DNA of 64,000 nt from Escherichia coli (GTDB lineage: Bacteria > Pseudomonadota > Gammaproteobacteria > Enterobacterales > Enterobacteriaceae): the NCBI RefSeq assembly GCF_016026235.1, contig NZ_CP065613.1. One strand, written 5' to 3'. The translations under genes were made by a program, and so were the position numbers. This document shows, piece by piece, positions 9,784 to 62,044 of the stretch (the first letter of the stretch is position 1; each line of letters starts with the position of its first letter). The notes under the pieces are model-generated. The model was not told where the DNA came from. It ran no database searches and saw only the letters and a list, made by a program, of their open reading frames with translations.

Positions 9784-10143
9784 ATGCGCGTGTTTAAAAC
9801 CAAATGGTTTGCAAGGGAAGCCAGGTCTCATGCAATAACAGATGAAGAGTTGTGCCGGGCCATTTTAGAAACGGAGCAAGGTAAAGCTGATGCACTTGGT
9901 GGTGGCGTTTTTAAAAAGCGCCTTCACCAAAATCGTGAGCGTGCAATTATTCTGGCAAAAGGGGGAAGCAATTGGTTTTACACGTTTTTATATGCAAAAC
10001 AGGATATGTCGAACATCAATAGTCAGGAACTGGCTGGGTTTCGTGAACTTGCAAAGCATTATGCCTTCCTGACGAAAGCCCAGCTAACAGCAATGATTAA
10101 CACTAAAGAACTGACAGAGATCTGCTATGACTGCAAAAACTAA
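9784..10143 (+). CDS. putative type II toxin, RelE/ParE superfamily (HigB-2-like)
   Basis: 119-aa basic protein; overlaps the downstream HTH gene by 17 nt (ATGACTGCAAAAACTAA). Family assignment is from architecture and recalled resemblance, not a search. Confidence 0.55.
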   Translation: MRVFKTKWFAREARSHAITDEELCRAILETEQGKADALGGGVFKKRLHQNRERAIILAKGGSNWFYTFLYAKQDMSNINSQELAGFRELAKHYAFLTKAQLTAMINTKELTEICYDCKN

Positions 10144-10450
10144 ATTTAAAAGTCCTGCATTTGAGGCTATTCACAGCGCAGCGGCTGGATTGTCCAGCGT
10201 CGATGCTATTTCTGCCGAAACAATGCGTACTTTTGACAAAGCCTGCCTGACCAGCGTGCAAGACTTACAACCTGTTGAGATAAAAGCACTGCGGGAAAAA
10301 TTAAAAGTGAGTCAGCCCGTCTTCGCTCACTATCTCAATACCAGCGTTTCAACTGTACAAAAATGGGAAAGTGGCGCTAAACGCCCCAATGGCATTTCAT
10401 TAAAACTGCTCAGCATTGTGCAAAAACACGGGCTGGATGTGCTGCTGTAA
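10127..10450 (+). CDS. putative antitoxin, helix-turn-helix (Xre-like) DNA-binding protein
   Basis: 107 aa with a C-terminal HTH-like segment (...SQPVFAHYLNTSVSTVQKWESGAKRP...); translationally coupled to the upstream toxin-like gene. Confidence 0.55.
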   Translation: MTAKTKFKSPAFEAIHSAAAGLSSVDAISAETMRTFDKACLTSVQDLQPVEIKALREKLKVSQPVFAHYLNTSVSTVQKWESGAKRPNGISLKLLSIVQKHGLDVLL

Positions 10451-12298: not shown

Positions 12299-13593
12299 CC
12301 TGAGGGATCCCCAGAAAATTTAGTAAACCATTATCATATTGGTATACCGTTGCTGTAGAACTTTCAGCCCTGCGTCAAGTGACAGTGTGTTTAGTATGAG
12401 TGGAGAATGTCGAATCACATTCTCCGCCAGTTTTAATAACGAGATGACTCGCCTGTGCTTCACTGTATTTGCCTGATATTTATGATGTATCCCTTTGTTT
12501 TCCAGGCTGAAACCGCTTAACCACATAATGATACTGGCTAATGTTGCGATCAGACTCAATACCGTGACCCGCCCGGATGAATGACTGGCACCAAACCGTA
12601 GTCCAAATCCCCAGCGAGGATTTTTTCATCCCTGAAATTTTGCTCAATTTGCATTCTACGGCTGTATAATTTCATTACCTGTTTTGGCGAGAACTCAGTA
12701 CTGTTTGTGAAAATAAACCATGGTGATTTCCCGGCAGTACGAGCTTTAGCCGTCACCGATGGTCTGGTTGCTCTTTCCTTCGAGCGTTTAAATCTACGAC
12801 CTTTAGACTTACTTTTATAAAGATAAAAATGCCCTTCATGTTGTGCATTTTTATCTCGACCCAGCAGGCCTTCATCTAAATAAATTGCTGTCGTTGATGC
12901 TTTTGTGCCTGAGTCCGACACCTTTTCCCAGCCATTACCAACATTGTAATAATGATTGCCCAGTACCCGGCAAATATAGGTCCAGCCACGGGAGCGGAGC
13001 TGTTGGAACCATCGCCCCTGAAAACCGGCATCTGTAATAACAATGACATCAGTCCCGGGGGAAAAGCACTCAGCAAGCGATTCCAGAAAACGCTCATGTA
13101 CATCTGCATTCGCTGTCTGTGATGATGGAACGACACAACTCATCAACGGTAAAGAACGCCCGTCACATGCCAGGCTTGCCCGCAAAAGCTGAAAACGAGA
13201 GGCATGATAAGCACTCCAGTCAATGAGTATCACAACACGAGACATTCCCCGCGTAATCTTTTGGGTAATTCGCTGAAAAATGGTGGAAACCTCATTTTGC
13301 AAATGTCGATTCCCCAACAGTCGATCCACCCGCTTTATTTTGTTTTTAACTGATGCCGTACCGGTTAAATGACGCCCGATACTGGTAAGTGTGAGGGAAG
13401 CGCCATTTATTACAGCATTAGTTGCGTCAATCAGTGATTTTTGACGGTAAAGATGCAAAGGGGCCAGTATGTTGTTAAGGAAATTTTGGCATAATGAACG
13501 TGCAGGCATAGTGGTGATCTCCTTGAAATTGTTAGCACAATCAATTAGATCACATCTCACTATGCCTGTCTTGTTTTCTGGGGATTCCTCAGT
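12299..13593 (-). mobile_element. IS4-family, IS10-like insertion sequence (~1.29 kb) inserted in adeQ
   Basis: Terminal inverted repeats CTGAGGGATCCCC (left) and GGGGATTCCTCAG (right) resemble IS10 ends; flanked by direct repeat TGGTCATCC at 12290-12298 and 13593-13601. Boundary is ambiguous by 1 nt. Confidence 0.8.
12320..13509 (-). pseudogene. IS10-like DDE transposase, frameshifted
   Basis: Translation from MPARSL... shares blocks with IS10 transposase (NKIKRVDRLLGNRHL, DAGF, YLYKSKSKGRRF, YSRRMQIEQNFRD). Reading frame changes near 12619-12626 at an A6 run; the C-terminal ~80 codons continue in the adjacent frame. Confidence 0.75.
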
Positions 13594-52886: not shown

Positions 52887-54290
52887 TTACGATGACAATG
52901 TTCTGATTAAATTTGAAAAATCTTCTTTGATATCGTGGCTCTCTTCACGCAACTGCTCGATCTTACGGCAGGCATGAAGCACCGTCGTGTGGTCACGACC
53001 ACCAAACGCATCGCCAATCTCCGGCAGACTGTGGTTAGTCAGCTCTTTCGCCAGCGCCATCGCCATCTGGCGCGGACGCGCCACCGAGCGGGATCGACGC
53101 TTGGAAAGGAGATCCGCGACTTTGATCTTGTAGTACTCCGCCACCGTCTTCTGAATATTGTCGATGGTGACCAGTTTTTCCTGCAATGCCAGCAAGTCGC
53201 GCAGCGCCTCACGCACGAAGTCGATGGTGATCGCCCGTCCGGTAAAGTTGGCATTGGCAATGACGCGGTTCAGCGCCCCTTCCAGCTCACGTACGTTAGA
53301 TCGTAGACGCTTGGCGATAAAGAACGCCACTTCGCCCGGCAAACGAATGTCGTTTTCGTCGGCCTTTTTCATCAGGATCGCCACACGGGTTTCCAGCTCT
53401 GGCGGTTCGATCGCCACAGTCAGTCCCCAACCGAAGCGGGATTTCAAACGATCCTCAACGCCGTTGATCTCTTTCGGATAGCGATCCGAGGTGAGAATGA
53501 TCTGTTGATTACCTTCCAGCAGGGCGTTGAAGGTATGGAAAAACTCTTCCTGAGATCGTTCTTTATTAGCAAAAAACTGAATATCGTCGATCAGCAGTGC
53601 ATCTACGGAACGGTAGTAGCGTTTAAACTCTTCGATCGCGTTGTTTTGCAGGGCTTTAACCATGTCCTGAACAAAGCGCTCGGAGTGCATATAAACCACT
53701 TTGGCATTCGGCTTGCGCGCCATAATGCCGTTACCCACCGCATGCAGCAGGTGAGTTTTACCCAGACCCGTGCCGCCATAAAGGAACAACGGGTTATAGG
53801 CACCGCCAGGGTTATCCGCCACCTGGCGAGCCGCCGCGCGCGCCAGTTGGTTAGATTTACCTTCAACGAAGTTATCAAACGTGTGTTTGACGTTTACGTT
53901 AGAACGATAGGTCGGTTCTGCCGGGGCCGGGACGTTATCCCAACCTGAGCGCGTAGAAGGCGCAGCACGTTGCGGCTGCGTTTGCGCCACCTGTGCAGGG
54001 GCCGCGACGTTGCTCGTCACTGCCGCTTGTGGCGTTTGCGTCACCGGTTTGGTGCCGACTTCAAAACGCAGCTGTGGGGCATCCGCTCCGCAGAAACTGG
54101 TTAGCAGTCCATTGATATTATTAAGGTACTTGTCCCGTACCCAATCGAGGACAAAACGGTTTGGCGCGTACAGGGCCAGCGTGTTATCGCTCAGTTCCGC
54201 CTGCAATGGGCGTATCCACATACTGAATTCTGTGGCTGGTAACTCATCCTGCAATCGGGCAAGACACTGCTGCCAAAGCGAAAGTGACAC
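52887..54290 (-). CDS. dnaA: chromosomal replication initiator DnaA
   Basis: 467 aa from a GTG start ([13 protein letters not shown]...); AAA+ Walker [11 protein letters not shown]. Confidence 0.95.
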
Positions 54291-54413
54291 GGCGGACTCC
54301 ACTCGAACAAAAGTCGATAATGACTAAGGCTGAAACATTCATGATTGTTGACGTACGTCGAAAAGACCCTGCTTGAGGGTGACGCACGAACCGCTGTCTG
54401 CGGTTATATGCCC

Positions 54414-54638
54414 GATCAAGATCCTGCAAAACGATCGGGACCGCGGATCATAGCCTAAACTGCGCAAGAGATCTTCTGTTTCTCACAGATTTTCCCGATT
54501 TATCCACAGGACTTTCCAGAACTCGCTAAGTGTAAACGATCCTGCCGCGAGGCGGGCACGATTTACGCCGCATATTGGAAAATTTAATGACCATAGACAA
54601 AAATTGGCTTAATCGATCTAATAAAGATCCAGGACGAT
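54414..54638. promoter_or_regulatory. dnaA promoter region: DnaA box TTATCCACA (54500-54508) within a dense GATC cluster
   Basis: Exact 9-mer DnaA box; nine GATC tetramers within ~225 bp, counted directly. Confidence 0.65.
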
Positions 54639-54884
54639 CCTTGCGCTTTACCCATCAGCCCGTATAATCCTCCACCCGGCGCGCCATGCTGGTTTCCACT
54701 GGTGTGAGGTCGTACATTTTCCCTGCGAAAAGGTGCGGAAAAGCGCGGTAAATAAGGAAAGAGAATTGACTCCGGAGTGTACAATTATTACAATCCGGCC
54801 TCTTTAATCACCCATGGCTTCGGTGTCCATCGTTTCATTTTTCGGCGGATATCCAATAAAGCCATTGAATTTATTCAAGTTTAG

Positions 54885-55037
<153 letters not shown>

Positions 55038-55053
55038 TAAAGCTAACCCCTGA

Positions 55054-55413
55054 GTGGTTAAGCTCGCATTTCCCAGGGAGTTACGCTTGTTAACTCCCAG
55101 TCAATTCACATTCGTCTTCCAGCAGCCACAACGGGCTGGCACGCCGCAAATTACCATTCTCGGCCGCCTGAATTCGCTGGGGCATCCCCGTATCGGTCTT
55201 ACAGTCGCCAAGAAAAACGTTCGACGCGCCCATGAACGCAATCGGATTAAACGTCTGACGCGTGAAAGCTTCCGTCTGCGCCAACATGAACTCCCGGCTA
55301 TGGATTTCGTGGTGGTGGCGAAAAAAGGGGTTGCCGACCTCGATAACCGTGCTCTCTCGGAAGCGTTGGAAAAATTATGGCGCCGCCACTGTCGCCTGGC
55401 TCGCGGGTCCTGA
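55054..55413 (+). CDS. rnpA: RNase P protein component
   Basis: 119 aa from a GTG start; basic protein. Confidence 0.9.
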
Positions 55414-60796: not shown

Positions 60797-62044
60797 ATGA
60801 CTGATCAAGCTGAAAAAAAGCACTCTGCATTTTGGGGTGTTATGGTTATAGCAGGTACAGTAATTGGTGGAGGTATGTTTGCTTTACCTGTTGATCTTGC
60901 CGGTGCCTGGTTTTTCTGGGGTGCCTTTATCCTTATCATTGCCTGGTTTTCAATGCTTCATTCCGGGTTATTGTTATTAGAAGCAAATTTAAATTATCCT
61001 GTCGGCTCCAGTTTTAACACCATCACCAAAGATTTAATCGGTAACACCTGGAACATTATCAGCGGTATTACCGTTGCCTTCGTTCTCTATATCCTCACTT
61101 ATGCCTATATCTCTGCTAATGGTGCGATCATTAGTGAAACGATATCAATGAATTTGGGCTATCACGCTAATCCACGTATTGTCGGGATCTGCACAGCCAT
61201 TTTCGTTGCCAGCGTATTGTGGATAAGTTCGTTAGCCGCCAGTCGCATTACCTCATTGTTCCTCGGGCTGAAGATTATCTCCTTTGTGATCGTGTTTGGT
61301 TCTTTCTTCTTCCAGGTCGATTACTCCATCCTGCGCGATGCCACCAGCACCACTGCGGGAACGTCTTACTTCCCGTATATCTTTATGGCTTTGCCGGTGT
61401 GTCTGGCGTCATTTGGTTTCCACGGCAATATTCCCAGCCTGATTATTTGCTATGGAAAACGCAAAGATAAGTTAATCAAAAGCGTGGTATTTGGTTCGCT
61501 GCTGGCGCTGGTGATTTATCTCTTCTGGCTCTATTGCACGATGGGGAATATTCCGCGCGAAAGCTTTAAGGCGATAATCTCCTCAGGCGGCAACGTTGAT
61601 TCGCTGGTGAAATCGTTCCTCGGCACCAAACAGCACGGCATTATCGAGTTTTGCCTGCTGGTGTTCTCTAACTTAGCTGTTGCCAGTTCGTTCTTTGGTG
61701 TCACGCTGGGGTTGTTCGATTATCTGGCGGATCTGTTTAAGATTGATAACTCCCACGGCGGGCGTTTCAAAACCGTGCTGTTAACCTTCCTGCCACCCGC
61801 GTTGTTGTATCTGATCTTCCCGAACGGCTTTATTTACGGGATCGGCGGTGCCGGACTGTGCGCCACTATCTGGGCGGTCATTATCCCCGCGGTGCTGGCA
61901 ATCAAAGCTCGCAAAAAGTTTCCCAATCAGATGTTCACGGTCTGGGGCGGCAATCTTATTCCGGCGATTGTCATTCTCTTTGGTATAACCGTAATTTTGT
62001 GCTGGTTCGGCAACGTCTTTAACGTGTTACCTAAATTTGGCTAA
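60797..62044 (+). CDS. tnaB: low-affinity tryptophan permease
   Basis: 415 aa aromatic amino acid permease. Confidence 0.9.
   Translation: MTDQAEKKHSAFWGVMVIAGTVIGGGMFALPVDLAGAWFFWGAFILIIAWFSMLHSGLLLLEANLNYPVGSSFNTITKDLIGNTWNIISGITVAFVLYILTYAYISANGAIISETISMNLGYHANPRIVGICTAIFVASVLWISSLAASRITSLFLGLKIISFVIVFGSFFFQVDYSILRDATSTTAGTSYFPYIFMALPVCLASFGFHGNIPSLIICYGKRKDKLIKSVVFGSLLALVIYLFWLYCTMGNIPRESFKAIISSGGNVDSLVKSFLGTKQHGIIEFCLLVFSNLAVASSFFGVTLGLFDYLADLFKIDNSHGGRFKTVLLTFLPPALLYLIFPNGFIYGIGGAGLCATIWAVIIPAVLAIKARKKFPNQMFTVWGGNLIPAIVILFGITVILCWFGNVFNVLPKFG

Follow-up and report, generated by a model that had tools for sequence, protein, structure and literature searches.

The stretch 54414-54639 of the window, which is the whole 64-kb stretch of DNA analysed here, is almost certainly the regulatory region of E. 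coli dnaA, and its GATC cluster and DnaA box are already known. The spacer between dnaA, on the minus strand, and the divergent rpmH, on the plus strand, holds all nine GATC sites and the perfect DnaA box. This spacer of 606 bp is identical base for base to that of E. coli K-12 MG1655, and it is found in 5424 of the 5426 complete E. coli genomes. The dnaA promoter region described for K-12 (Hansen et al. 1982; Campbell & Kleckner 1990; Speck et al. 1999; review PMC5835720) is the same element, such that the number of GATC sites, their span, the position of the DnaA box, the GATC sites in the -10 and -35 regions and the CCGCGG sequence all match the published description. Since these features were first described for a K-12 region of identical sequence, their recognition here brings nothing new. 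The comparisons made here indicate that the sites are non-random, more conserved than their surroundings and limited, as a cluster, to three gammaproteobacterial orders.

Locus and host strain

The ORFs around the cluster are those of recF, dnaN and dnaA on the minus strand and those of rpmH, rnpA, yidD, yidC and mnmE on the plus strand. The mechanical call of the dnaA ORF is four codons longer than the ORF that begins at the RefSeq GTG start. The features of the region are summarized in Table 1. The spacer does not differ from that of K-12, whereas the surrounding genome is that of another E. coli strain. The window is approximately 98.5-99% identical to K-12 and has several indels in its first 32 kb. 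Strain 503025 and K-12 are not collinear with these first 32 kb, and annotation transfer is restricted to 32-64 kb. A search of Rfam at E<=1 over 54000-55200 gives no match, and a search for repeats gives only short matches of 10-15 nt with no evident meaning.

Two of the differences from K-12 lie far from dnaA. An insertion of approximately 840 bp between nepI and yicN carries a toxin-antitoxin pair, in which the toxin gene comes first, at 9784-10450 on the plus strand. The toxin is of the RelE family (119 aa, PF06296, E=9e-42), and the overlapping gene after it encodes an HTH/MqsA-like antitoxin (107 aa). An insertion of approximately 1.29 kb, at about 12300-13591, encodes a DDE_Tnp_1 transposase and is an IS element located in the 5' part of adeQ. 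The adeQ ORF that is left encodes 408 aa, as compared with approximately 444 aa calculated from the coordinates of the K-12 gene (1335 nt). The adenine permease gene adeQ is probably disrupted or truncated at its N-terminus in this strain.

Table 1. Features in and around the spacer between dnaA and rpmH
Feature	Position	Strand	Description
dnaA coding sequence	52887..54290	-	467 aa, GTG start at 54290; RefSeq annotation
Whole GATC cluster	54414..54639		9 Dam sites over 226 bp; highest GATC density of the window
Proximal GATC trio (54414, 54420, 54433)	54414..54436		Just downstream of the dnaA2p transcription start
dnaA2p core	54441..54452	-	-10 TATGAT at 54447-54452, then CCGCGG discriminator ('Travers box') at 54441-54446
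AGATCT with GATC 54470-54473, dnaA2p -35 region	54469..54474		GATC placed in the -35 by PMC5835720
DnaA-box-like 9-mers, head-to-tail array	54479..54520	+	Four 9-mers at 10-12-bp spacing
Array 9-mer TTTCTCACA	54479-54487	+	1 mismatch
Array 9-mers	54490-54498 and 54512-54520	+	2 mismatches each
Array 9-mer TTATCCACA	54500-54508	+	Perfect; DnaA box 1
GATC 54538-54541 directly upstream of TACACT (54529-54534)	54529..54541	-	Probable dnaA1p -10
ysdD, small ORF	54587..54667	+	26 aa (MTIDKNWLNRSNKDPGRSLRFTHQPV); RefSeq annotation; overlaps the distal triplet
Distal GATC triplet (54615, 54626, 54636)	54615..54639		11- and 10-bp spacing, approximately one helical turn
Probable upstream rpmH-direction promoter	54641..54668	+	TTGCGC, 16 nt, TATAAT; read from the sequence
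rpmH-proximal sigma-70-like promoter	54766..54794	+	TTGACT, 17 nt, TACAAT; only scanner call in 54200-54950
rpmH (ribosomal protein L34)	54897..55037	+	Divergent neighbour; RefSeq annotation

Density and spacing of the GATC sites

The nine GATC sites begin at 54414, 54420, 54433, 54446, 54470, 54538, 54615, 54626 and 54636, and their start-to-start spacings are 6, 13, 13, 24, 68, 77, 11 and 10 bp. An earlier note, made from the sequence alone, had placed nine GATC sites upstream of dnaA at 54414-54638. The sites are all present, but the end that it gave is one base short, since the last site ends at 54639. The exact DnaA box that it had also reported is found at 54500-54508 with the sequence TTATCCACA. 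Its claim that the density is well above random expectation is borne out. The 64-kb window contains 271 GATC in total (1 per 236 bp), and the cluster contains 9 as compared with 0.96 expected (Poisson P ~8e-7). Among all 256 tetramers, GATC is the one most enriched in this stretch. When the number of GATC is counted in sliding segments of 226 bp across the 64 kb, the maximum is 9, and all segments with 8 or 9 are located at the cluster. Outside the cluster, 7 GATC per 226 bp are reached only inside the dnaA coding sequence, and 5 are reached at two further places. A comparable density in many other intergenic regions, by which the note proposed that its claim be refuted, is not seen. When the window is simulated 300 times with a first-order Markov model, the maximum is 4-7 GATC per 226 bp, and 9 are never reached.

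SeqA binds cooperatively to neighbouring GATC sites that are separated by not more than approximately three helical turns. The spacings within the proximal group (6, 13, 13 and 24 bp) and within the distal triplet (11 and 10 bp) are within this range. Closely spaced hemimethylated GATC sites are binding targets of SeqA, according to the account of Brendler (2000) that is given in PMC5835720.

A second GATC-rich tract is observed within the dnaA coding sequence. It contains 15 sites at 52959-53637 and is densest at 53376-53637 (9 in 262 bp). A shuffle of synonymous codons that keeps the protein and the codon usage gives an expectation of 8.9 +/- 2.0 GATC (P=0.0045), and the same shuffle gives no GATC excess for dnaN, recF, yidC and mnmE. 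The z value of the dnaA excess in this shuffle is approximately 3 for E. coli and Orbaceae and approximately 2.2 for Citrobacter and E. cloacae, and the excess is absent across Vibrio, Shewanella and Alteromonadales. The tract is rejected as a general feature of the clade, with a median z of 0.31 for the clade as compared with 0.11 for the outgroup (p=0.2). It may represent an extended sequestered domain in enterics or a weak statistical effect.

Promoters and DnaA boxes

The K-12 region has been described as containing "9 GATC sites within 225 bp", with the DnaA box between dnaA1p and dnaA2p (Hansen & Atlung 2018, PMC5835720). The dnaA2p promoter has a GATC in the -10 and another in the -35, and CCGCGG upstream of +1 (PMC5835720). 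Five GATC are assigned to P2 elsewhere, two on the -10/-35 and three downstream of the start (Sci Adv 2024 eado5398). The -10/-35 and start positions of the dnaA promoters given here are based on the descriptions in the review, combined with the sequence. For comparison, the 410 bp upstream of dnaA are aligned for the window, K-12, Citrobacter werkmanii, Enterobacter cloacae, Enterobacter sp. Bisph1 and Acerihabitans arboris.

GATC 54446-54449 falls within the dnaA2p -10, and TATGATCCGCGG (54452-54441) represents this -10 and CCGCGG on the dnaA-sense strand. Transcription from dnaA2p would start near 54439, and the proximal trio consists of the sites that are changed in the published 'm3SeqA' promoter variant. 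The dnaA2p core TATGATCCGC and GATCT of the -35 region are both invariant in 6/6 aligned enteric sequences. TACACT is probably the -10 of dnaA1p, judging from its sequence, and dnaA1p would start near 54522. The dnaA1p element ATCGNTTACACT is also invariant in all six aligned sequences, and GATCGTTTACACT is invariant in the five from E. coli, Citrobacter and Enterobacter. A sigma-70 consensus scanner calls neither dnaA promoter in 54200-54950, and its sole call is the rpmH-proximal site. The missed calls are not evidence against the dnaA promoters, because these promoters are non-consensus. Only six of the nine GATC sites are located at or between the dnaA promoters.

The perfect DnaA box reads TGTGGATAA on the dnaA-sense strand (54508-54500). 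It conforms to TTWTNCACA and is located at the promoters, and only two perfect boxes are found in the 64 kb. The box is invariant at the same position in Citrobacter, two Enterobacter species and Acerihabitans (100% identical). Of the 19 loci from Enterobacterales, Vibrionales and Alteromonadales, 17 have a TTWTNCACA sequence in the 400 bp that precede dnaA. The perfect box is accompanied by three weaker 9-mers in the same orientation (Table 1), and four closely spaced boxes have been proposed upstream of dnaA2p (PMC5835720). Among the weaker 9-mers may be those published as 'box 2' and 'box a'. The array resembles that of the mioC promoter, where a consensus DnaA box likewise has weaker neighbours of the same orientation at short spacing. 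The mioC array represses a promoter and titrates DnaA (PMC5835720).

The other perfect TTATCCACA box in the window is located at 61218-61226 on the minus strand, within the tnaB coding sequence. It may be fortuitous; for both strands of the 64 kb, the number of perfect boxes expected by chance is estimated at approximately 0.5.

The DnaA box between dnaA1p and dnaA2p is essential for autoregulation (PMC5835720). Studies on the K-12 sequence indicate that DnaA-ATP is required for repression of dnaA in vitro (PMC5835720; Sci Adv 2024 eado5398). When the level of DnaA-ATP is low, P2 is activated by the DnaA that occupies boxes 1 and 2, and when the level is high, this bound DnaA scaffolds an oligomer that occludes RNA polymerase (Sci Adv 2024 eado5398).

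Conservation of the GATC sites

When contigs from one genome per species are scanned with the DnaA protein, 80 gammaproteobacterial loci are obtained, of which 79 are usable. The 400 bp upstream of dnaA contain a median of 7 GATC in the 19 loci from Enterobacterales, Vibrionales and Alteromonadales, which we take to be the lineages that carry Dam, SeqA and MutH. The same 400 bp contain a median of 1 GATC in the 60 loci from other Gammaproteobacteria, such as Pseudomonas, Halomonas, Marinobacter, Xanthomonas and Legionella. The difference between these two groups is significant (Mann-Whitney p=1.3e-9), and the ratio to the local background is 5.7 for the former and 0.4 for the latter. The enrichment is restricted to particular lineages, presumably those with Dam and SeqA.

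In the enteric alignment, the columns of the GATC sites are 91% identical to E. coli, as compared with 70% for the other columns of the cluster span (four relatives; permutation P=0.0022). Of the nine sites, four (54636, 54626, 54470 and 54446) are present in every one of the four enteric relatives, three (54615, 54538 and 54420) in three of them, and the remaining ones in two (54433) and in one (54414). GATC is also enriched in Vibrio, Shewanella and Pseudoalteromonas, but at different positions and in sequences that cannot be aligned with that of E. coli. This result suggests that the enrichment is selected as GATC itself and is not a by-product of a shared motif, because the positions of the sites differ between the orders and the enrichment persists.

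The enrichment is largely lost in reduced-genome symbionts of the clade, as represented by Ca. Pantoea edessiphila (1 GATC upstream of dnaA), Orbaceae (3) and Ca. Photodesmus (3). In the outgroup, Thiobaca has 6 GATC upstream and was considered as an exception. This is rejected, since its stretch looks like GC-rich coding sequence that abuts dnaA and not like a promoter cluster. The Pseudomonas/Stutzerimonas loci (L024, L027, L031, L032 and L034-L036) have 4-5 consensus DnaA boxes and 0-3 GATC between rpmH and dnaA, a pattern that presumably fits an oriC beside dnaA without Dam/SeqA control.

Distal triplet and the rpmH-direction promoters

The distal triplet is located inside ysdD, approximately 90-115 bp upstream of the likely dnaA1p start, and it is the best-conserved part of the cluster in the enteric alignment. 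Its site at 54636 abuts the -35 (TTGCGC) of the probable upstream rpmH-direction promoter. The hexamers of this promoter, AAAGCGCAAGGATC and ATTATACGG on the dnaA-sense strand, are invariant in the six enteric sequences. The scanner does not call this promoter because its -35 matches the consensus at only 3/6 positions. In Alteromonadales, a GATC triplet with 9-13-bp spacing is observed upstream of dnaA that resembles the distal triplet of E. coli, with flanks that cannot be aligned. This recurring triplet is found in Pseudoalteromonas, Cognaticolwellia and an Alteromonadaceae MAG. In Shewanella xiamenensis, the 400 bp before dnaA contain 12 GATC, some of them in runs with 10-bp spacing. The stretches concerned are located at approximately -340 to -380 from the dnaA start in four loci (L017, L018, L019 and L020) and at -225 to -118 in L014.

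The small ORF ysdD is listed by VanOrsdel et al. 2018 (PMC6001520), and it is retained in Citrobacter and Enterobacter sp. Bisph1. It also overlaps the -35/-10 of the probable upstream rpmH promoter. The conserved C-terminal half of its product (KRSNKDPGRSLRF in Citrobacter) is encoded by exactly these GATC and promoter elements, so that its conservation as a protein may reflect constraint at the DNA level.

The distal triplet is best conserved, abuts the conserved rpmH-direction -35 and recurs in Alteromonadales, and because of these properties a separate role can be considered for it. As a tentative and rather doubtful proposal, it may be a separately selected SeqA site that also couples the divergent ysdD/upstream-rpmH promoter (rpmH-rnpA-yidD-yidC) to fork passage, or it may nucleate a SeqA filament across the divergent region. 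The triplet is conventionally counted in the "dnaA promoter region", and it may serve dnaA, the divergent unit or both.

Alternative explanations

Clustering of the GATC sites by chance is of negligible probability. Real sequence is clumpier than Markov models, and eight other tetramers among 98 of similar abundance reach at least 8 per 226 bp somewhere in the window. However, chance is excluded by the Poisson and simulation results given above, together with the conservation of the sites across genera and orders. It is also quite improbable that other overlapping constraints (promoter hexamers, AGATCT-type DnaA-ATP sites, ysdD coding and the region upstream of the rpmH promoter) have given rise to the density as a by-product, with no selection for Dam or SeqA sites, although several sites do coincide with the -10, the -35/AGATCT, the ysdD ORF and, at its edge, the rpmH -35. 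A by-product of this kind does not account for enrichment at other positions in the unalignable sequences of Vibrio, Shewanella and Pseudoalteromonas. Nor does it account for the lack of enrichment in the 60 other gammaproteobacterial genomes, which share dnaA and, in many cases, its arrangement with rpmH, or for the level of GATC in this stretch, which is far above that of any other tetramer. The GATC sites might instead act mainly through the effect of their methylation state on promoter strength, which is approximately twofold for dnaA2p, with SeqA sequestration being secondary or dispensable. Two GATC sites are indeed located in the dnaA2p -10 and -35. In addition, initiation synchrony is intact when the three downstream GATC are mutated (Wilkinson 2006, as reported in Sci Adv 2024 eado5398). 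We consider this explanation unlikely, since it covers just the two sites that overlap promoter hexamers and leaves the other seven, including the invariant distal pair, unexplained. Furthermore, prolonged hemimethylation that is shortened in seqA mutants is documented (PMC5835720), and the phase of expression after replication is altered in the m3SeqA reporter (Sci Adv 2024 eado5398). The direct effect of methylation is real, and it is complementary to sequestration, not an alternative to it.

The cluster is extremely unlikely to be part of a replication origin located beside dnaA, as in Pseudomonas or Bacillus. The GATC density and the DnaA box do recall E. coli oriC, which has 11 GATC in 232 bp as compared with 9 in 226 bp here, contains DnaA boxes, and after replication stays hemimethylated for a prolonged time and is bound by SeqA (PMC5835720). 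The multiple DnaA boxes upstream of dnaA in the Pseudomonas and Stutzerimonas loci point in the same direction. The cluster differs from oriC, however, in having one strong, perfect DnaA box. No AT-rich dip or unwinding element is seen at the cluster, where the GC content is approximately 0.48, and no 13-mers of the oriC type are found near it. When K-12 oriC with 100-bp flanks is compared with the window by blastn, only two chance matches of 12 nt are obtained. The earlier note was correct in stating that oriC is outside the window. The window extends from yicI to yidZ, and its right end corresponds to approximately 3,893,439 of MG1655, in which oriC is located at 3,925,744-3,925,975. The origin is annotated between mnmG and mioC, approximately 32 kb past the end of the window and approximately 42 kb from the cluster. 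The two regions also differ in the duration of sequestration, which is 1/5 of the doubling time for dnaA and 1/3 for oriC (PMC5835720).

Sequestration and autoregulation of dnaA

The preferred reading is that the region is subject to Dam methylation, SeqA sequestration and autoregulation by DnaA. The earlier note had proposed the same, and its proposal is supported by the K-12 literature on the identical sequence and by the comparative tests made here. The dam and seqA genes lie outside the window, but E. coli is a host with both Dam and SeqA (PMC5835720; PMC13337833). For the mechanism, we rely on published work with this identical sequence, which covers the binding of DnaA and repression by it, hemimethylation and the dependence on SeqA. 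The distal promoter dnaA1p and the proximal promoter dnaA2p would transcribe leftward into dnaA, and between these promoters DnaA would occupy the perfect box and its weaker neighbours. When the level of DnaA-ATP is high, an oligomer would form and occlude the promoters, resulting in autoregulation. The GATC sites would be methylated by Dam and would become hemimethylated when the fork passes, approximately a minute after initiation at oriC. Binding of SeqA to the closely spaced hemimethylated sites would then delay their remethylation and turn off dnaA transcription for approximately a fifth of a generation, so that less new DnaA would be made while oriC itself is sequestered. Full methylation would also modestly raise the activity of dnaA2p.

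In K-12, the region remains hemimethylated and sequestered for approximately 1/5 of the doubling time after fork passage, and for a shorter time in seqA mutants (PMC5835720). Both dnaA promoters are inactive during sequestration (PMC5835720; PMC13337833). Prolonged SeqA-dependent hemimethylation of the K-12 sequence is attributed to Campbell & Kleckner 1990 and Lu et al. 1994 in PMC5835720 and PMC13337833. Repression by SeqA delays the expression of P2 after replication (Sci Adv 2024 eado5398), and the activity of dnaA2p increases approximately twofold when it is fully methylated (PMC5835720). The effects of site removal are modest, as far as they are summarized in Sci Adv 2024 eado5398. The three-site mutation that leaves synchrony intact lowers the growth rate and the DNA content in rich medium, and SeqA repression depends little on the GATC sites in the -10 and -35 (Kedar 2000). 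These modest phenotypes, the location of the three distal sites away from the dnaA promoters and the loss of most of the enrichment in the reduced-genome symbionts count against the mechanism.

The check made here confirms the accuracy of a reading that was based on the sequence only, and it adds a small comparative result on GATC enrichment. The dnaA element is a classic link between replication and gene expression, in which synthesis of the initiator is paused after the origin fires, and which thereby helps to prevent immediate re-initiation.
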